A DNA stretch of 6,567 bases, from IMG/VR virus record IMGVR_UViG_2681813316_000019, positions 1 through 6,567 of that record. One strand, given 5' to 3'. Below, piece by piece: positions 1-6,567 of the stretch (positions within the stretch are counted from its first letter, which is position 1; every line of letters begins with the position of its first letter). Source of the stretch: a virus (taxonomy: Duplodnaviria > Heunggongvirae > Uroviricota > Caudoviricetes). Under the pieces are notes generated by a model, which was given only the letters and a program-made list of their open reading frames with translations, had not been told where the DNA came from and did not search any database. Both the position numbers and the translations under genes were made by a program.

Positions 1-140
1 CTATCGGCGAAGGTGAGTTGATGGCTCATGATGTCCCTCTGGGATGCGCTCCGGATGAATATGATGATCTCATATCAGGAACTTGTTCGCACCTTCCCTA
101 ACTAACACTACGTTTCACACAGCAATTACATGGAAATAAC

Positions 141-488
141 ATGACTATCAAAGCGACTGACATAGAGATTCTTCATCGTTATGCTGAAGGGGTAATGGAA
201 CGTTCTAACCATCATGCAAAAAATGTTGGTGCAGCCGCTCTTACATTGCTAGGAGGTGTTATCTGGAAAGCCCTGCCCGGATCAATCGAGATAAGAACGT
301 ATAACGGAAGTCTTGCAAATATGGTGTGGTGGCAAAGCGAAAGAACATTAAAAAATTATGCAATCTCATACAACCATAATTCATGTGAAATTGAAATGAG
401 AGATGAATCAGTCAAAAGTGCTGTATTATTTAGCATTTCCAACGAAACCACTCCAGAAAAAATATTATCACAGCTTTCTGAGCTTTAA
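141..488 (+). CDS. Hypothetical protein (115 aa), family not recognised; oriented opposite to the adjacent replication operon
   Basis: Intact ATG-initiated ORF 141..488 from the ORF track. Hand count of sample lines gives roughly 40% G+C against about 50% in P/O. No motif I can assign. Sits beyond the 3' end of P where lambda has ren/nin genes, but on the other strand. Confidence 0.45.
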   Translation: MTIKATDIEILHRYAEGVMERSNHHAKNVGAAALTLLGGVIWKALPGSIEIRTYNGSLANMVWWQSERTLKNYAISYNHNSCEIEMRDESVKSAVLFSISNETTPEKILSQLSEL

Positions 489-493
489 TTAAA

Positions 494-511
494 GGCGGTG
501 CTAACACCGCC
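494..511. terminator. GC-rich hairpin (GGCGGTG-CTAA-CACCGCC) between the convergent ORF 141..488 and gene P; possible bidirectional terminator
   Basis: Perfect 7-bp inverted repeat with 4-nt loop seen directly. On the minus strand it is followed by TTTAATTAAA (partly U-rich); on the plus strand the tail is not U-rich. Placed between two convergent genes. Confidence 0.35.
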
Positions 512-692
512 CATACCATTACTCCACATCTTACGCAACTTGATAATTATGCTCTATTAAATACCCACAATATTTCATCAATGCATGGGTCAGCTACAAA
601 ATGTTTACCGTGGTAATTCCTGTTTTCGCAACATCTCAAAAGAACAATAAACACTGTATTTCTTCAAGTAACGAAGAATCTTTCTTTGCCCG

Positions 693-1394
693 TCATACAC
701 TTGCTCCTTTCAGCCCAAACTTAGCTTTGATTTCTGCGATCTTCGCCAGAGCCTGTGCACGATTTAGAGGTCTACCGCCCATAACAGGAAGTTGTTTTAC
801 TGGTTCAGGTATCGTCTCACCACGGTTAATTCGCGCTGTCATACAGGTCAGTTCATCGGCAGCCTTGCGCCGTAATTCCGCGTCAGTCAGCGCATTGGCC
901 CGCATGTTCTGGTACAGGTTGGTAACCAGCCAGTAGTGCGCGTTTGATTTCCATGGATAAGACTCTGCATCCGGATAAAGGCCACGCTTCCGGCAATACT
1001 CGTAAACCATATCAACCAGCTCGCTGGCGTTTGGCAGCCCGGCGTTAACGGATGCTTCTTCCCGGCACCAGGCGACAAACTGCCCGGGTGATGGCAGGAA
1101 TGGTCGATTCTGCCGACGGGCTACGCGCATTCCTGCGTTAACCTGTTCCATTGTGGTGATCCCGTTTTCCCGGAAAGCCAGAACCCACTGGCGGCGGATT
1201 TCGTTCAGTTCGTTCTGGTCACGGTTAGCCAGGCTCGCCGGGAAAGTTGCCAGTAACTGGCTGAACACACCGTTGATGATCTGCGCTACCTGCTGTACCT
1301 GCGGCTTTTCGTCGTACTGTTCCGGCATGTTGTTGGCGATCCGGCGCATCTGCTCACGGTCAAAGTTAACCATCTGTGCGGCGATGTTTTTCAT
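693..1394 (-). CDS. P: Replication protein P (DnaB helicase loader), lambda-type
   Basis: 233-aa translation matches phage lambda P as I remember it almost residue for residue along its whole length (MKNIAAQMVNFDREQMRRIANNMPEQYDEKPQV...AKIAEIKAKFGLKGASV). ATG at 1392-1394 overlaps the TGA stop of the upstream O gene (ATGA). Confidence 0.95.
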   Translation of the reverse strand: MKNIAAQMVNFDREQMRRIANNMPEQYDEKPQVQQVAQIINGVFSQLLATFPASLANRDQNELNEIRRQWVLAFRENGITTMEQVNAGMRVARRQNRPFLPSPGQFVAWCREEASVNAGLPNASELVDMVYEYCRKRGLYPDAESYPWKSNAHYWLVTNLYQNMRANALTDAELRRKAADELTCMTARINRGETIPEPVKQLPVMGGRPLNRAQALAKIAEIKAKFGLKGASV

Positions 1395-2320
1395 AAATCC
1401 ACCCCGTAAATCCAGTCAGTGTTTGTCAGGTCGAGTTTTGATTTTCCGGTTGTCACGCCAGCCTGTTGCTTGTTACGGTTGATTTCGAGTTGGGTCCACT
1501 TGTCGCGGAGTTTGGCCGGACTCAGCACGTTACCGGACCAGAAGTTGTCCTGGCATGCCCAGCGGAACAGCACGCACATGTCGCGGTGGTTACGTCCGTC
1601 ACGTTCACGCATCAGGCGGATATCGTTAGCCCACCCTGCAAAATTCGGTTTTCTGGCTGATGGTGCGATGGTCTTCACCATGTCAAACATCCACTCTGCG
1701 GCGGTCAGGTCTTCTGCTGTCCCCCACTTGCTGCCGCTCTGAATCGCAGCATCCGGTTTCACCACAGGAAGGTCGTTTTCTGGCTGGTCAGAGTATTCGC
1801 CAGAATTCTCGGACGAATAAGGTTTTATATTGTCTTTTGTTAGTTTGTCTTTTGTGTTTACCTGATTCGGGTAAGTGCCTTTACCTGATTTGGGTAAACT
1901 TTTCTTACCTGATTCAGGTAAATTTACCTCTTTCAGGTAAACTTTATTTTTCTTACCTGATTCGGGTAATGTTGACCATTCACTGACCACATTATTAATG
2001 CCGATATTCCGCCCGCTCTGAATAAAAATCCCACGCTTTACCAGAACACTTTTTGCAGCAGAACACTTGTGCGGCAATATCCCGGTCAACTCGGAAAGTT
2101 GCTCGTTGCTCACCCAATCCAGTTTTTTATTAAAGCCATATGTTTTGCGCATGACAGCCAGGAAGACCAGAAGCTGGTGCTGTGTTAATCCGGCCAGCAT
2201 CACAGCTTCCAGCAACTCATTTGCAATGCGCGTATAACCATCATCGAGATCTGCCACGCGCGGCTCCTTTTGTGCCACATCCGGCACTGGAAAATTGAAT
2301 ATCTCAGCAGTGTTTGCCAT
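1391..2320 (-). CDS. O: Replication initiator protein O (origin-binding); C-terminal domain lambda-like, N-terminal DNA-binding region divergent
   Basis: C-terminal about 60 aa (RDMCVLFRWACQDNFWSGNVLSPAKLRDKWTQLEINRNKQQAGVT...LDLTNTDWIYGVDL) matches lambda O closely; the N-terminus MANTAEIFNF resembles lambda O MTNTAKILNF. Start chosen at the ATG at 2318-2320 because it is preceded by GGGAGGAATT (strong SD). The ORF-track extension to 2410 adds 30 residues with no RBS and would overlap the upstream gene. Iterons lie inside the coding region, as in lambda. Confidence 0.9.
   Translation of the reverse strand: MANTAEIFNFPVPDVAQKEPRVADLDDGYTRIANELLEAVMLAGLTQHQLLVFLAVMRKTYGFNKKLDWVSNEQLSELTGILPHKCSAAKSVLVKRGIFIQSGRNIGINNVVSEWSTLPESGKKNKVYLKEVNLPESGKKSLPKSGKGTYPNQVNTKDKLTKDNIKPYSSENSGEYSDQPENDLPVVKPDAAIQSGSKWGTAEDLTAAEWMFDMVKTIAPSARKPNFAGWANDIRLMRERDGRNHRDMCVLFRWACQDNFWSGNVLSPAKLRDKWTQLEINRNKQQAGVTTGKSKLDLTNTDWIYGVDL
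1858..1969. repeat. Origin of replication: five 17-bp iterons (consensus TTACCTGATTCGGGTAA, arms TTACC/GGTAA) inside gene O, with an AT-rich segment at about 1806-1857 on the O-downstream side
   Basis: Seen directly: copies start at 1858, 1881, 1905, 1924 and 1953, each an imperfect palindrome TTACC-N7-GGTAA. The flanking segment 1811-1860 is strongly A+T-rich. Architecture matches ori-lambda (iterons then AT-rich region within O), but the iteron sequence is not the lambda one. Confidence 0.8.
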
Positions 2321-2406
2321 AATTCCTCCCGCAATGAGTGCGTTACGATTTGCACCTGAAAGTCGGCTCTGTTCCCGCAGACCGGCTTTCGCCATTTCTG
2401 AGCCTG

Positions 2407-2952
2407 TCATATTGCCCCCAACATGGTGGTAACCATCGCCATCAATGGACCAGCCAGATCCGGGTCCACACGAAACATCGACACAATACCTTCACTAATT
2501 TCCTTCAGTTTCTGGTGGCGTGGTGCGTTGAGAATGACTGCCTGTTTTGCCTCACTGAGTTCCTTTTCCATTTCAGCCAACCTAGCCATGAAGCTATCCT
2601 GCTCAACCAGGTAACCGCGATATTCCAGCGGTAGTACCGCTAGAATTGCCGGGGTCAGTTCACGCACGTTATTTCGGTATTTTTCAGAATCGAATTTGTT
2701 ATCGAGGAAGCGGAACAGCTTCTGGCGTGCACGGCTGACATCATCAGGGAAATCGATGGCGCCGCCGCCCTGCTCCCGATACTCATTCACAATGAGTGTG
2801 GCAACGACATCCTGATTATCTTCAGCCGACCAGGCGCGGACGGCATCACGGATTTTTTCGTGGCCTGGCACCTGTTTTGTTTGAGAACGATTTATCACCG
2901 CAGTCGGGCTAAATCCGCTAGTCTGTTGGTATGTAAGTGGTTGCATAGTCAT
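2407..2952 (-). CDS. YdaT-like protein at the cII position (function uncertain)
   Basis: 181-aa ORF immediately downstream (24-bp gap) of the Cro-like gene and upstream of O. Segments NEYREQGGG and TPAILAVLPLEYR resemble the Rac-prophage YdaT family as I remember it, which is why I call it YdaT-like. True start may be the second ATG (2944-2946), which has better spacing to an AAGG. Confidence 0.55.
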   Translation of the reverse strand: MTMQPLTYQQTSGFSPTAVINRSQTKQVPGHEKIRDAVRAWSAEDNQDVVATLIVNEYREQGGGAIDFPDDVSRARQKLFRFLDNKFDSEKYRNNVRELTPAILAVLPLEYRGYLVEQDSFMARLAEMEKELSEAKQAVILNAPRHQKLKEISEGIVSMFRVDPDLAGPLMAMVTTMLGAI

Positions 2953-2976
2953 TGCCTTATCAGTTAACGCCGCAGT

Positions 2977-3204
2977 TTAGGCGGCAGAATTACTCGCGTT
3001 AAACAATGGTGCGAGGTCGGGACGAATATCTGCTGGTTTAATCTTTCCACCAGTGGCTGAGACAATTTTCATTACATAGCGGGCATCAATTCCGCCACCG
3101 TGTAGCCAACGCCAAACTGTGGGTTGGGCTACACCGCATAGATCTGCCAGTCGTTTTTGACTACCTGTAATACTGATTGCGAGTTGAATGGTTTGATTTG
3201 TCAT
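2977..3204 (-). CDS. Cro-like small HTH regulator (YdaS-like)
   Basis: 76 aa from the ATG at 3202-3204 (the ORF-track start at 3210 is a TTG). HTH segment GSQKRLADLCGVAQPTVWRW and the downstream IRPDL motif resemble YdaS/Cro-type regulators. Divergent from the repressor gene across a 110-bp operator region. AGGA lies 8 nt upstream. Confidence 0.75.
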   Translation of the reverse strand: MTNQTIQLAISITGSQKRLADLCGVAQPTVWRWLHGGGIDARYVMKIVSATGGKIKPADIRPDLAPLFNASNSAA

Positions 3205-3314
3205 TATCAATTCCTATTGGTATTGCAATGAATGAATAATAGCAATGCGTATTAATCCAAGTAATAGCAAAACGTGTTTTGACCATCAATACGCAAGCGT
3301 ATAAATTAAAACTT
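3205..3314. promoter_or_regulatory. Divergent immunity control region (OR-like): repeated operator motif TAATAGCAA(T) and candidate PR and PRM promoters
   Basis: TAATAGCAAT at 3237-3246 and TAATAGCAA at 3262-3270, plus a related palindromic ATTGCAAT at 3222-3229. Candidate PRM on plus strand: TTGAC(C) 3279-3284, about 16 bp, TATAAA 3300-3305, placing the transcription start at or just before the repressor ATG at 3315. Candidate PR on minus strand: TTGATG (plus coords 3284-3289), 17 bp, TATTAC (3261-3266). Promoter hexamers are by eye, not scored. Confidence 0.55.
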
Positions 3315-4007
3315 ATGAAAAAAGAAACTCTTGCTGATCGCTTAAACCTAGCGATGGAACAATCTGGAATGTCTCAAGGCGCTCTTGCAAAGGCGTCTGG
3401 CGTAGCTCAACCCACAATCTGGAGACTGACAAGCGGCAACGCGCGCGGCTCAACAAAAATTGTTGAAATAGCTAATGCATTGGGTGTTCGAACAGAATGG
3501 CTCTCATCAGGCATAGGCCCGATGAGAAATGACGGTCAACAATCAGGGAAGCCTGCTGTCAGCCATTCAAAATACTTCAAGATTGACGTTCTTGATATAG
3601 AAGTCAGTGCCGGGCCGGGTGTAATCAACCGTGAGTTTGTAGAAGTTCTACGCTCGGTTGAGTACTCGTTTGACGATGCTCGTCACATGTTCGATGGCAG
3701 GAAGGCGGAAAATATCCGCATCATTAACGTGCGTGGTGACAGCATGTCAGGAACGATCGAACCAGGTGATCTTCTGTTCGTTGATATCACGGTTAAATCT
3801 TTCGACGGTGATGGTATCTATGCGTTTCTGTATGACGACACAGCCCATGTAAAGCGCCTGCAAATGATGAAGGATAAGCTGCTGGTTATCTCTGATAACA
3901 AGAGCTACTCACCGTGGGACCCGATCGAGAAAGACGAGATGAACCGGGTATTCATCTTCGGGAAAGTCATCGGAAGCATGCCGCAGACGTATAGGAAGCA
4001 TGGGTAG
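3315..4007 (+). CDS. CI-type prophage repressor: N-terminal HTH_XRE domain plus C-terminal LexA-like S24 peptidase (autocleavable, SOS-inducible type)
   Basis: HTH MSQGALAKASGVAQPTIWRLTSG; candidate Ala-Gly cleavage site in EVSAGPGV; catalytic Ser motif VRGDSMSG and Lys in AHVKRL, as in LexA and lambda CI. Start set at the ATG at 3315 (MKKETL...); the ORF-track start at 3279 is a TTG. No SD precedes 3315. Confidence 0.85.
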   Translation: MKKETLADRLNLAMEQSGMSQGALAKASGVAQPTIWRLTSGNARGSTKIVEIANALGVRTEWLSSGIGPMRNDGQQSGKPAVSHSKYFKIDVLDIEVSAGPGVINREFVEVLRSVEYSFDDARHMFDGRKAENIRIINVRGDSMSGTIEPGDLLFVDITVKSFDGDGIYAFLYDDTAHVKRLQMMKDKLLVISDNKSYSPWDPIEKDEMNRVFIFGKVIGSMPQTYRKHG

Positions 4008-4118
4008 TGAAGGACGTGTCAACTCTATTTTGTAAGCTATCCAGACTCACAGTTGCAGATCGACGAGTAACTTACATACAGCACAAAAAAACAATATGCG
4101 AGTGCTTTTAGACTAGAC

Positions 4119-4133
4119 TTACCATAATGGTAA
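4119..4133. promoter_or_regulatory. 15-bp palindrome TTACCAT-A-ATGGTAA overlapping the first ATG of the toxin-like gene; candidate operator for the module
   Basis: Perfect 7-bp arms seen directly. Resembles the ACCT-N-AGGT type palindromes bound by MqsA-family antitoxins (from memory). Position at the 5' end of the three-gene module. Confidence 0.35.
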
Positions 4134-4537
4134 CAAGTATGATTCTTAGCAGATATGTGGGAACTCCTCCCCGTGATGGCGAGGACAGAAAGATTCAAGG
4201 TGGTCCGCTTTATTTAGATATCATTGATTTGATTGATGAATGTGACACACTGCCTTGGACTAAACGGTGTATCAGGGATGTTCAATCGCTTTCTTTAGAT
4301 GCAGATGACATCAAATCTATGGTGATAAAAGCAGTCACTAAAGGGAGATTTCTAGGTTCAGAATGGTGTCAAGGCAGTAAACCAGGTGTATGGGCAGCTT
4401 GTGATGCTTATAGCTTTGAGCACTCATTTTGGTGCCAAGCTATGCATAAAGAACTTAATAACGAGTTCTACATTAAATTTTTTGTAAACATTACTGGCAA
4501 TGTAGTGCTTACAGTATCTCTTCATCTCTCTAATTGA
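4127..4537 (+). CDS. MqsR-like toxin (RelE-superfamily mRNA interferase fold), putative toxin of a TAC module
   Basis: 136-aa ORF. C-terminal half (DDIKSMVIKAV...WCQAMHKELNNEFYIKFFVNITGNVVLTVSLHLSN) aligns by eye with E. coli MqsR (DFYKSMTT...YLKITVIHDVLIVSFKEK). Toxin-first gene order matches mqsR-mqsA. About 25 N-terminal residues are extra; an alternative start is ATG 4139. No clear SD. Confidence 0.55.
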   Translation: MVTSMILSRYVGTPPRDGEDRKIQGGPLYLDIIDLIDECDTLPWTKRCIRDVQSLSLDADDIKSMVIKAVTKGRFLGSEWCQGSKPGVWAACDAYSFEHSFWCQAMHKELNNEFYIKFFVNITGNVVLTVSLHLSN

Positions 4538-4561
4538 GTGATGATAAATGAGGATTTTTAT

Positions 4562-5149
4562 ATGAGAAACAACAACATATGTCCAGTTTGTGGTGTAGGT
4601 CATCTCACCGTGGAGATGGAGTATGATGATGTTACTTATAAAGGGGAAACAAAAAATCTCCCAATAAGGTTTTCTGTGTGTGATCAATGTGGTTCGGAAA
4701 CTGCCACACCAGTCGATTTACGAGAAAACAAACGAATTTTCAATGAATACAAAAAGTCTATCGATGGACTTTTAACAGGAAAAGAATTAAAAAAAATTAG
4801 AACTGAAGTATGGATGATAACCCAGCAAAAGGCATCCTCTATATTTGGTGGGGGGCCTAAGGCATTTTCCAAGTATGAATCTGATGATGTCATTCAATCA
4901 GAAGCAATGGATAAACTGATGCGTTTAGCAGCAGAAGTTCCTGATGCATTCAAAAGGTTACGGGAATTATCTGGCGAAATCAAAGTTGAAAGAACAGTCT
5001 CATCATCTAAATCTTTACCTATATGGAAATCTGAAGCAAAAGCACAATTTGAAAACGATGATCAGGGATTTGACAGCAAATCACCAGCCCAAACAAAAAT
5101 GAATCAAACATCAATAAAGATAAAAACTGTTGCTAAGCGGGTAGCATGA
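4562..5149 (+). CDS. MqsA-like antitoxin: N-terminal zinc ribbon (CPVC...CDQC) plus HTH_XRE domain, with a C-terminal extension of about 55-60 aa
   Basis: ICPVCGVGH...CDQCGSE resembles the MqsA Zn-binding domain (MKCPVCHQGE...YCVHCEE). ITQQKASSIFGGGPKAFSKYESDD matches the MqsA HTH region LTQKEASEIFGGGVNAFSRYEKGN. Start placed at ATG 4562, preceded by GAGGA with a 7-nt spacer; the ORF-track start at 4538 is GTG. The protein is about 65 aa longer than E. coli MqsA, mostly at the C-terminus. Confidence 0.75.
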   Translation: MRNNNICPVCGVGHLTVEMEYDDVTYKGETKNLPIRFSVCDQCGSETATPVDLRENKRIFNEYKKSIDGLLTGKELKKIRTEVWMITQQKASSIFGGGPKAFSKYESDDVIQSEAMDKLMRLAAEVPDAFKRLRELSGEIKVERTVSSSKSLPIWKSEAKAQFENDDQGFDSKSPAQTKMNQTSIKIKTVAKRVA

Positions 5150-5649
5150 TGAATGAACTTCTTAGATCAGCAATAGACGCATTATCAATAATGCATATCA
5201 ATATCAGAGAATCTAACTTTGCTTTTTCTGAAGGGTATAATAGCTTTAACTTCAACAGCATAAATAAGCAAACACAATCATTTCGTAAGATAAAAAAAAT
5301 CGAAGCTATTGAATTAGTAAGTGACGATGACTCATTAAAAAATGAGCTATATTACTCTTTTCACTACTCAGTTGGGCTTAGATTTATTGCAAAATCCGAA
5401 GAAACATCTAAAGACGAAAATGATGTTGATACAATTTTTTCTATAGAAGCAATTTTTGAGGCGATATATCGCTCAAAAAGAGAATTATCTAAAGAAGAGT
5501 TAGAAGAATTTGCTAAGCAAAATGTAGGTTTTAATGTATGGCCTTTTTGGCGAGAGTATGTTCAAAACAGCACATCCAGAATGGGAATTACTACAATAGC
5601 TATACCATTCTTTAAATTCAATAAATCAGACATACCTTCATTAGATTAA
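5146..5649 (+). CDS. SecB-like chaperone, putative third component of a TAC module
   Basis: 167 aa. C-terminal segment FNVWPFWREYVQNSTSRMGITTIAIPFFKF matches the conserved SecB segment [34 protein letters not shown]; IFSI and an acidic central region also align. Start ATG overlaps the antitoxin stop (ATGA at 5146-5149), suggesting translational coupling. Hand-counted G+C on one sample line is about one third. Confidence 0.6.
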   Translation: MMNELLRSAIDALSIMHINIRESNFAFSEGYNSFNFNSINKQTQSFRKIKKIEAIELVSDDDSLKNELYYSFHYSVGLRFIAKSEETSKDENDVDTIFSIEAIFEAIYRSKRELSKEELEEFAKQNVGFNVWPFWREYVQNSTSRMGITTIAIPFFKFNKSDIPSLD

Positions 5650-5663
5650 ATTCAAATATAACT

Positions 5664-5690
5664 CCCGGCTACCGTGCCGGGTTTTCTTTT
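5664..5690 (+). terminator. Rho-independent terminator ending the repressor-side operon (t_imm equivalent)
   Basis: CCCGGC-TACCGT-GCCGGG hairpin (6-bp GC stem) followed directly by TTTTCTTTT, 15 bp after the stop of the SecB-like gene. Confidence 0.8.
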
Positions 5691-5780
5691 GTCCCCTCCC
5701 CTCATCACACACCGTTCAAAAAACCACCACGACCTCACTTCAGTTATCGCTATGCGATGCAAGTCACAAAATTAATTCTT

Positions 5781-5860
5781 TTTGCTATCAAACATTTAAT
5801 ATCAAAACACATCAACTAATAGCAATAAGTATTGATATCACCAATAGCAATAGCTATTAT
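5781..5860 (+). promoter_or_regulatory. OL/PL-like region: operator motif copies shared with the OR region, overlapping a candidate sigma70 promoter for the leftward early operon
   Basis: TAATAGCAAT at 5817-5826 (exact 10-mer also at 3237-3246), AATAGCAAT at 5843-5851 adjoining palindrome AATAGCTATT (5849-5858), and reverse-oriented TTTGCTAT at 5781-5788. Candidate promoter: TTGATA 5832-5837, 17-bp spacer, TATTAT 5855-5860, with operator copies in the spacer. Confidence 0.55.
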
Positions 5861-6137
5861 CACCATATCGCAACAACACAACGATACGGCAACCACCTGA
5901 TTCACCGTTGCGATGACCGCTTAGATCCGCAGCTTGAATTTCAGCAGGCTTCGGGGAGTGCGAGGGATGAAACGGACGCGTGAACGTCGGTGTGACCAGC
6001 TGAAATCAACTCAACATTTCATACCTTAGTCGCTTCAACGAGGCGGCTTAGTTATGACAACCGGCGGCCATCCACCGCCTGAATACGCGCAGAAGTCTTT
6101 ATATGTTCAGCAGCCCAGCTTACGGGCAGGAGTTTTT

Positions 6138-6344
6138 ATGGTTCATCAACATTACGGAACGCAGACCGTTAATCGCGGTGCGGTCATGCCAGGAATGCTG
6201 GTCAAACGCAAAGATGGTACCTGGACTGCATCAGCTAATTTACGCGGACGACTTTATCTGCATCGCGGCATTGAGCGCACTTATACCCGTGACTTGCTCG
6301 TGGAAGTTTTTCTCGACGGACGCGGTAACGGCCTCAATCACTAA
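6138..6344 (+). CDS. Hypothetical small early protein (68 aa from ATG 6138), upstream of gam
   Basis: ATG 6138 is preceded by AGGAG with a 5-nt spacer. The frame is open back to 6030 (ORF track starts it at ATG 6054, 96 aa). Composition looks protein-like. No family recognised. Confidence 0.35.
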
Positions 6345-6419
6345 TCCCCTTTCCTGTTTTCCTAATCAGCCTGGCATTTCGCGGGCGATATTTTCACAGC
6401 CATTTTCAGGAGTTCAGCC

Positions 6420-6567
6420 ATGAACGCTTATTACATTCAGGATCGTCTTGAGGCTCAGAGCTGGGCGCGTCACTACCAGCAGATCGCCCGTGAAGAGAAA
6501 GAGGCAGAACTGGCAGACGACATGGAAAAAGGCCTGCCCCAGCACCTGTTTGAATCGCTATGCATCG
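6420..6567 (+). CDS. gam: Host-nuclease (RecBCD) inhibitor Gam, 5' portion only (continues past window end)
   Basis: Translation [49 protein letters not shown] matches the lambda Gam (GamS form) N-terminus as I remember it, with one conservative difference. AGGAG lies 7 nt upstream of the ATG. The window ends at 6567 inside the gene. Confidence 0.9.

Follow-up and report, generated by a model that had tools for sequence, protein, structure and literature searches.

The window analysed here is a stretch of 6,567 nucleotides (nt), positions 1 to 6,567 of the IMG/VR record IMGVR_UViG_2681813316_000019 (a virus of the Caudoviricetes), and it contains an operon made up of a toxin gene (mqsR), an MqsA-family antitoxin gene (mqsA) and a gene for a SecB-like chaperone (mqsC). 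The segment at 4970-5146, which encodes the C-terminal tail of the antitoxin, very probably specifies the chaperone-addiction (ChAD) element of MqsA in MqsRAC, a phage-defence cassette that a lambdoid prophage carries in its immunity region. In toxin-antitoxin-chaperone (TAC) systems the chaperone is an infection sensor joined to a toxin-antitoxin pair, and it is the tail of the antitoxin that makes this coupling work. A first-pass annotation, made from the letters of the DNA, had put the tail forward as a candidate for such a role. The proposal is borne out by the linkage of the tail to SecB-like genes in related loci, by the covariation and joint loss of tail and chaperone, by the predicted disorder of the tail and by the SecB fold of the product of the next gene, which is joined to mqsA by an ATGA overlap.

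The C-terminal tail of the antitoxin

The antitoxin gene runs on the + strand from an ATG at 4562 (or from an in-frame GTG at 4538) to 5149. The RefSeq annotation is that of the 195-residue protein beginning at ATG 4562, with the GTG start giving an open reading frame (ORF) of 203 residues. The folded core, a zinc ribbon of the CxxC...CxxC type followed by a helix-turn-helix (HTH) domain, occupies residues 1-136 of 195 (4562..4969, + strand) and is recognised above the cut-offs by both of the available MqsA models, Pfam MqsA_antitoxin (PF15731; 63.9 bits against a cut-off of 30) and TIGR03830 (113.2 bits against 61.8). Both models span only residues 15-142 of the 203-residue ORF. The four cysteines of the zinc ribbon are invariant in a 36-sequence alignment (A1), and the solved E. 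coli MqsA (PDB 3gn5 and 2kz8; 131 residues) aligns to residues 6-133 of the 195-residue protein and then stops. An AlphaFold2 model of the antitoxin built with 110 homologous sequences gave a predicted local distance difference test score (pLDDT) above 90 for the core, with the last helix at residues 127-136, and a pLDDT of 45-55 for residues 141-195, which were modelled without secondary structure. From this model the tail is predicted to be disordered.

The tail had at first been delimited as 4982-5149, an interval that in the antitoxin frame reads KVERTVSSSKSLPIWKSEAKAQFENDDQGFDSKSPAQTKMNQTSIKIKTVAKRVA followed by the stop codon and whose 55 residues correspond to residues 149-203 of the 203-residue ORF and 141-195 of the 195-residue protein. 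A segment extending past the MqsA fold and absent from the K-12 protein is indeed present, but it starts about 4 residues earlier than was proposed and is about 59 residues long (residues 137-195; 4970-5146, + strand), while the interval 4982-5149 extends over the stop codon and into the first 4 nt of mqsC. The description of the tail as low-complexity and charged holds only weakly, its charged fraction (31%) being equal to that of the core and its entropy slightly lower (3.77 bits, against 3.81-4.07 bits for sub-windows of the folded domain). What is distinctive is a content of S, T, N and Q of 33%, compared with 19% in the domain, and a net charge of +5. The sequence of the tail on its own had no match among PDB sequences.

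Three segments of the tail stand out. The first is a tryptophan island, L-P-I-W-K-S-E (residues 152-158; 5015..5035, + strand, with W155 at 5024-5026), whose P-I-W-x-S is shared without change by the six closest sequences. It is predicted, from sequence, to be the main chaperone-binding motif. The second is an aromatic and acidic island, Q-F-E-N-D-D-Q-G-F (5045..5071, + strand), containing F163 and F170. Close orthologues all keep F163 and D166 and, by analogy with other systems, F163 and F170 may contact the chaperone. The peptide spanning residues 148-172 reads KSLPIWKSEAKAQFENDDQGF. The third is an amphipathic, strand-like C-terminal segment, S-I-K-I-K-T-V-A-K-R-V-A (5111..5146, + strand), which is the sole stretch of positive hydropathy in the distal tail. 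Within it I-x-T and the terminal alanine are invariant, and each of the six closest sequences has VA or AA as its final two residues. ClpXP degrons are formed by the terminal Val-Ala of M. tuberculosis HigA1 and by the terminal Ala-Ala of CmdA and, by this analogy, the terminal Val-Ala of the window antitoxin is predicted to be one also. Similar features recur more widely in tails that are linked to a SecB-like gene (see below). In 41 dereplicated tails of this kind tryptophan makes up 2.67% of residues compared with 0.32% in MqsA cores, an 8-fold enrichment, and the first tryptophan mostly lies 10-21 residues past the core. Many SecB-linked tails carry a basic and hydrophobic strand (RPxLRVVSSS, KTRIVAS and IKIKTVAK, for example), and the last residue is in most cases a small one preceded by an aromatic or aliphatic one.

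The tail is less well conserved than the domain that precedes it. Among the six closest sequences its identity is 41-51% compared with 72-86% for the domain, and a comparison with the copy of the cassette on a Klebsiella phage gave ratios of non-synonymous to synonymous substitution rates (dN/dS) of ~0.38 (tail), 0.07 (core), 0.06 (chaperone) and 0.15 (toxin), figures that are approximate since dS is close to saturation. Such a pattern might be taken as the mark of a functionless read-through extension, or of a linker before the chaperone gene. This explanation is scarcely credible given that the dN/dS of the tail is still below 1, that it contains islands of invariant residues and a conserved C-terminal residue, that its tryptophan enrichment is unusual in a disordered segment, that its length is kept at 38-72 residues across 62 SecB-linked loci and that the equivalent tail of a V. 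cholerae TAC antitoxin has been functionally validated (Bordes et al., 2016). By these sequence measures the tail is a constrained coding region.

An E. coli relative of 109 residues (P0015) has a tail that is identical to that of the window up to ...SPAQTK and then different (NESNINKDKNCC). The divergence looks like the result of a frameshift that removes I-K-I-K-T-V-A-K-R-V-A, either as a natural variant or as a sequencing error.

Linkage of the tail to a SecB-like chaperone

Relatives of the antitoxin core were collected at 80 genome loci, of which 77 had enough downstream sequence for analysis. The downstream gene was classed using iterated hidden Markov models (HMMs) seeded on MqsC homologues, together with Pfam. 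A tail was taken as long if it had 35 residues or more. A SecB-like gene whose start lay between -25 and +14 nt from the antitoxin stop codon was found behind 62 of the 65 long-tailed mqsA genes and behind none of the 12 short-tailed ones (Fisher p = 1.2e-11), which shows that the tail is not a common feature of MqsA proteins that is independent of the chaperone. Overlap of the two genes as ATGA is the commonest antitoxin-chaperone arrangement among the related loci. Pairs of loci share on average 23% identity in the tail, as against 60% in the core and 40% in the chaperone, and in a partial Mantel test on 45 dereplicated loci the divergence of the tail was correlated with that of the chaperone when that of the core was controlled for (r = 0.40, p = 0.001).

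Further evidence for this association came from three relatives (L068, L009 and L023) in which tail and chaperone are jointly absent. A deletion of 375 bp in L068, relative to L052, takes out most of the tail and the first half of the SecB-like gene, so that the beginning of the tail runs into the middle of that gene (L068 3905-4090 compared with L052 3916-4289). In the Rheinheimera isolates L009 and L023 the antitoxin core is 94-97% identical to that of R. soli (L019) and homology ends at the junction of core and tail, with the break relative to L019 at about 3908-3916. All that these isolates retain is the core of mqsA, and the DNA flanking it is different. Homologues of MqsC with 35-47% identity are found behind three kinds of antitoxin, namely an MqsA (L083), a HigA-type dnstrm_HI1420 protein (L084 and L085) and an HTH_3 protein (L086). 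The extensions of these antitoxins contain tryptophan and end in ARVA, WVNA or SQVA. For the three non-MqsA pairs (L084 597-1489, L085 659-1551 and L086 2057-3010) the identity of the chaperone is 35-41% and the ends are WVNA or SQVA. The joint losses, the exchange of partners and the covariation of tail and chaperone suggest, at the level of sequence, that the two behave as one mobile module that moves between antitoxin families, as Bordes et al. (2016) proposed.

A different role for the tail would be that of a toxin-neutralising or toxin-binding arm, as in antitoxins of the RelB or Phd type, with the chaperone acting elsewhere. Many type II antitoxins neutralise their toxins through a disordered C-terminal segment. 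In addition, the toxin of the window exceeds canonical MqsR in length by ~40 residues and does not match it significantly, and its mode of binding could therefore differ. In the solved MqsR-MqsA complex (PDB 3hi2), however, it is the N-terminal zinc domain of MqsA that binds the toxin, and both this domain and its four cysteines are kept in the window antitoxin. Short-tailed relatives (L012, L053 and L068 among them) keep the same toxin family upstream, so that the tail is evidently not needed for pairing with the toxin. Finally, the tail follows the chaperone and not the toxin, and MqsC-like chaperones occur with similar tails on unrelated toxin-antitoxin pairs. A toxin-binding arm is thus very improbable as an account of the tail, and a ChAD element is the reading pursued below.

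The MqsC chaperone

The mqsC gene (5146..5649, + strand) is matched exactly by the published primers pBAD-mqsC-F and pBAD-mqsC-R (see below) and encodes a protein of 167 residues. Its ATG overlaps the stop codon of mqsA as ATGA at 5146-5149 and, given this overlap, translation of the two genes is probably coupled. The product falls below the SecB cut-offs of both Pfam (16.5 bits against 26) and NCBIfam (15.3 bits against 143), and none of 11 database homologues of MqsC carries a precomputed SecB domain. Support for the suggestion that the gene following the antitoxin is SecB-like came instead from structure. An AlphaFold2 model of MqsC (pLDDT 81.6) has the topology H-E-E-E-E-H-H, which is that of SecB, a four-stranded antiparallel sheet with a long helix packed on it, and when this model was compared with the PDB by Foldseek the 18 best matches were all SecB or Rv1957, with template modelling (TM) scores of up to 0.77. 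The best match was 5mtw, the structure of M. tuberculosis Rv1957 with a ChAD peptide (E 1e-7, TM 0.64/0.76), followed by the SecB structures 1ozb, 1fx3 and 1qyn (E 1e-5 to 1e-7). The only model of the PADLOC defence library to match MqsC was that of CmdC, and this match was weak (E 7e-4).

At three loci a long-tailed MqsA is followed by members of a separate family of ORFs of 140-150 residues (L055 4040-4462, L072 2265-2699 and L080 4051-4503). These proteins end in ...QYVLVAQAFPLAMTxFRRELxSMGFxxxxLPLG, which is reminiscent of the C-terminal motif of SecB. Pfam found nothing in them and comparison with the MqsC family by hhalign gave a probability of no more than 12%. Judged by the resemblance of their C-termini they may constitute a third, more divergent chaperone lineage. 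In a further relative (L057 3501-4830) the MqsA core is fused to a C-terminal extension of 315 residues and has no SecB-like neighbour.

Identity with the published MqsRAC system

Vassallo et al. (2022; PMC9519451) list, in their Table S8, a synthetic 'MsqRAC gene fragment' and cloning primers for the mqsR, mqsRA and mqsC genes of E. coli C496_10. The gene-specific parts of six of these primers all match the window exactly (at 4139, 4514-4537, 5132-5149, 5146 and 5627-5649), and 379 nt of the synthetic fragment correspond to positions 4039-4417 of the window with 3 mismatches. These are a change of GA to AC at 4100-4101, upstream of the toxin, and of A to G at 4263, which replaces lysine by arginine in the toxin. 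They may reflect strain variation or changes made in the design of the synthesis. The C496_10 system and the window have the same gene order of toxin, tailed MqsA and SecB-like MqsC. On this sequence evidence the operon is the published MqsRAC anti-phage system of E. coli C496_10, and the tail, although correctly found, was already known because it belongs to that system. The system was recognised here by way of the published primer sequences. The PADLOC library did not identify MqsRAC and had no model that matched either the toxin or the antitoxin. The RefSeq labels of the three products are 'hypothetical protein', 'MqsA family antitoxin' and 'protein-export chaperone SecB', and the main value of the present analysis for the window lies in the right annotation, that of an experimentally validated anti-T2 system, MqsRAC, at the position of rexAB.

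It has been shown that the toxicity of MqsR is rescued only by MqsA and MqsC together, that MqsRAC protects against phage T2 and that an excess of MqsC abolishes this protection (PMC9519451). The same construct was used in a second study (PMC10783111), and neither paper identifies the T2 trigger of MqsRAC. This leaves room for an explanation in which the tail is itself a direct phage sensor, for instance as the target of binding or cleavage by a T2 protein, or a regulatory appendage concerned with DNA binding or autoregulation, the chaperone being a mere folding helper. The hypervariability of the tail would fit an interface shaped by an arms race. Such a role is nevertheless unlikely, as the loss of defence on chaperone overproduction indicates that the chaperone is the limiting sensor, and neither the strict co-occurrence of tail and chaperone nor their joint loss is predicted by it. 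In HigBAC, moreover, the phage structural protein gpV does not bind the ChAD and instead competes with it for the chaperone HigC (Mets et al., preprint 10.1101/2024.02.24.581848).

Several points weigh against the assignment of the tail as a ChAD element. The literature on MqsRAC (PMC9519451, PMC10783111) describes no assay in which the tail was truncated, used in a pull-down or followed for degradation, and what the published experiments show is that the whole antitoxin depends on the chaperone, not which part of it is responsible. The predicted disorder is indirect evidence, resting on the low pLDDT of a monomer model. The co-occurrence counts are not phylogenetically independent, although the covariation of the tail, the joint losses and the exchange of partners by MqsC do not depend on phylogenetically linked counts. 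Three long-tailed relatives (L055, L080 and L057) have no recognisable SecB-like neighbour, and in one locus (L001 3501-4247) the tail has only 15 residues and yet a chaperone gene starts ~150 nt downstream, at the end of the contig. The latter case may represent a TAC in decay, or else a frameshift or misassembly, the genome having been assembled from a metagenome. The likeness to the M. tuberculosis ChAD described below is a lead, a pattern of 4-6 residues that is too short for statistics. Lastly, dependence on ClpXP is not universal among TACs, the HigA of E. coli NT1F31 being ClpXP-independent.

Proposed mechanism

A model can be proposed in which the folded core of MqsA, comprising the zinc ribbon and HTH domain, would neutralise the toxin, while the disordered tail of ~59 residues would destabilise the antitoxin when it is alone, likely through a Val-Ala degron of the ClpXP type and an aggregation-prone I-K-I-K-T-V segment. 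A tetramer of MqsC, supplied by coupled translation at the ATGA overlap, would bind the tail at P-I-W155, F163 and F170, and in doing so would shield it and keep the toxin neutralised. On infection by T2 the chaperone would be titrated away, probably by a nascent structural protein of the phage, and the exposed tail would then lead to loss of MqsA and release of the toxin. Neutralisation by the core and protection by MqsC are steps supported at the level of the system by the published experiments and by homology. The residues that bind MqsC, the function of Val-Ala as a degron and the triggering of the system by competition for the chaperone are parts of the model that we infer.

A more speculative version, which is possible but on balance doubtful, would treat the tail as a three-part switch consisting of a docking motif built on tryptophan and phenylalanine, a variable spacer, and a strand with a Val-Ala degron. 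The pattern P-I-W-[KRH]-S-E...F..D would mimic a nascent structural protein of T2, and tail and MqsC together would make up a portable sensor that can be fitted to MqsA, HigA-type and HTH_3 antitoxins (L083-L086). If this were true, the T2 trigger of MqsRAC would be predictable from the sequence of the tail. The linkage of tail and chaperone, the enrichment in tryptophan, the Val-Ala and Ala-Ala ends and the deletions at the junction provide targets for mutagenesis of MqsRAC. The concept of the TAC and its ChAD, as set in 2016-2024, is unchanged by the results on the tail.

The toxin gene and the prophage locus

The toxin gene mqsR (4127..4537, + strand) was located as an ORF and with the primers pBAD-mqsR-F and pBAD-mqsR-R. 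It encodes 132 residues from ATG 4139, the start used by RefSeq and by the published primers, or 136 residues from ATG 4127. The N-terminus typical of the family, 'MV(N)...VS.Y', suggests that ATG 4127 is the true start. A homologous ORF of about 140-147 residues lies upstream of MqsA in 73 of the 80 related loci. The toxin had no match to Pfam or NCBIfam models and none among PDB sequences, whether the search was run with the one sequence or with a profile of 30 members. The MqsR model PF15723 was marginally touched by 2 of 30 members of the toxin family, with E values of at least 0.04, and comparison of the family with K-12 MqsR by hhalign gave a colinear alignment with a probability of 0.3%, which is not significant. 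The published label 'MqsR' could therefore not be verified by sequence for this toxin.

Comparison of the ORF list with Pfam and RefSeq identified the window as the immunity region of a lambdoid prophage. Replication genes lie on the - strand at 693-1394 and 1391-2410, followed on the same strand by a YdaT-domain gene in the position of cII (2407-2952; RefSeq 'toxin YdaT domain-containing protein', 181 residues) and a cro-like HTH gene (2977-3210). The product of the YdaT-domain gene is far bigger than lambda cII. On the + strand a gene for a cI-like S24 repressor (3279-4007) is followed on its 3' side by the closely spaced toxin, antitoxin and chaperone genes and then by an intrinsic terminator that ends the operon (5664..5690, + strand). 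The terminator has a GC-rich stem of 6 bp with a run of T residues behind it, and the same sequence is kept in lambda-like phages. In E. coli PI7 the mqsRAC cassette is situated between the repressor and kil/gam/bet/exo, which is the position of rexAB in lambda. The locus with the chaperone homologue of 47% identity (L083) has the same order of repressor, toxin, MqsA and chaperone. An arrangement of repressor and cassette was seen at 3279-5690 of the window, at L081 6216-8550 and at L083 423-2714. The cassette also occurs with 99.8% identity on Escherichia phage PhiR70_1, in the record of which it appears as three hypothetical proteins, and a copy with 75% identity is present, with no annotation, on Klebsiella phage 2b LV-2017. 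With at least 80% of the query covered, it was found in 18 of 5,426 complete E. coli genomes and was chromosomal in all of them.

A scan of the window for promoters found fewer sigma-70-like sites than in shuffled controls. A single site of this type on the + strand was considered as the promoter of the operon and rejected, since it overlaps the start codons of the toxin. Transcription of the operon may start at the repressor promoter, as for rexAB, or within 4039-4126. An internal promoter, or a separate role for the DNA encoding the tail, was likewise rejected, there being no promoter-like site on the + strand in 4900-5200, and no support was found for two small ORFs that overlap the tail region (4944-5102 on the + strand and 5133-5261 on the - strand). 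On the 3' side of the terminator an AT-rich segment (5790-5870) was seen by eye to contain repeats of AATAGCAATA and of TATCACC-like words (...ctaatagcaataagtattgatatcaccaatagcaatagctattatcaccatatcg...), which may be the leftward operator sites of the prophage.

Comparison with known systems

The MqsRA pair of E. coli K-12 (3gn5, 3o9x and 2kz8) has an antitoxin with the same core of zinc ribbon and HTH domain as that of the window. The K-12 MqsA, however, stops at 131 residues, where the tail of the window protein begins, and it is not accompanied by a chaperone gene. The toxins of the two systems have no significant similarity by HMM or profile comparison.

The ChAD of M. tuberculosis HigA1 is a disordered C-terminal extension, as is predicted for the window tail, and likewise ends in Val-Ala. 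A tetramer of the SecB-like chaperone Rv1957 recognises this ChAD by way of its aromatic residues. In its core peptide, EVPTWHRLSSYRG, the residues W108, R110 and Y114 occupy pockets of the chaperone (Guillet et al., 2019; PMC6377645). This peptide and the window sequence L-P-I-W-K-S-E-A-K-A-Q-F have in common a short P-x-W-basic...aromatic pattern, the core V-P-T-W-H-R resembling the tryptophan island. HigA1 is not of the MqsA family, there is no alignable similarity outside these short motifs, and Rv1957 is only ~14% identical to MqsC. The earlier view that the tail is unlike the extensions of HigA-type antitoxins is thus accurate for the sequences as a whole, which cannot be aligned, but it overlooks the P-x-W-basic...aromatic pattern and the Val-Ala end. 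The settings also differ, the M. tuberculosis TAC being a stress-response system of the mycobacterial chromosome and that of the window a prophage defence cassette.

HigBAC and CmdTAC of E. coli are, like MqsRAC, defence TACs borne on prophages or mobile elements. They have other toxins (the RNase HigB and the ADP-ribosyltransferase CmdT) and other antitoxins. The ChAD of E. coli HigA uses spaced aromatic motifs (preprint 10.1101/2024.02.24.581848), with four such motifs ~30 residues apart in 96 residues, whereas the window tail has ~59 residues and its aromatics are 8 and 7 residues apart.

Deletion and grafting of the ChAD have been shown for M. tuberculosis HigA1 and for the HigA of E. coli NT1F31, and grafting for an MqsA of V. 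cholerae. In a survey of TACs by Bordes et al. (2016; PMC5105189), MqsRA was one of three toxin-antitoxin families found with SecB-like chaperones and the antitoxins were noted to have variable C-terminal extensions. Residues 136-176 of the V. cholerae MqsA, when grafted onto M. tuberculosis HigA1, redirected its chaperone specificity, which identified them as a transferable ChAD. The primers used for this system (Vcho-TAC, from V. cholerae RC385), with the junction LDKLMLD and the toxin start MVNNAIN, match the loci L050 and L052 exactly, and a Vibrio-type relative (P0101) has 46% identity to the window MqsA over 83% of its length. The V. cholerae tail (AGVERNIQTSWKNVAVVDFSSTARKTRIVASHELELEACY[VG]) has 41-43 residues and ends in -CYV or -CYG, compared with -VA in the window, and the two tails cannot be aligned except for a tryptophan ~12-20 residues past the junction and a basic and hydrophobic strand. 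However, Vcho-TAC and the window system have toxins, antitoxins and chaperones of the same families, and their tails share the same junction, just past the last helix of the HTH domain. The validated ChAD of V. cholerae thus provides a link within these families to the candidate ChAD of the window.

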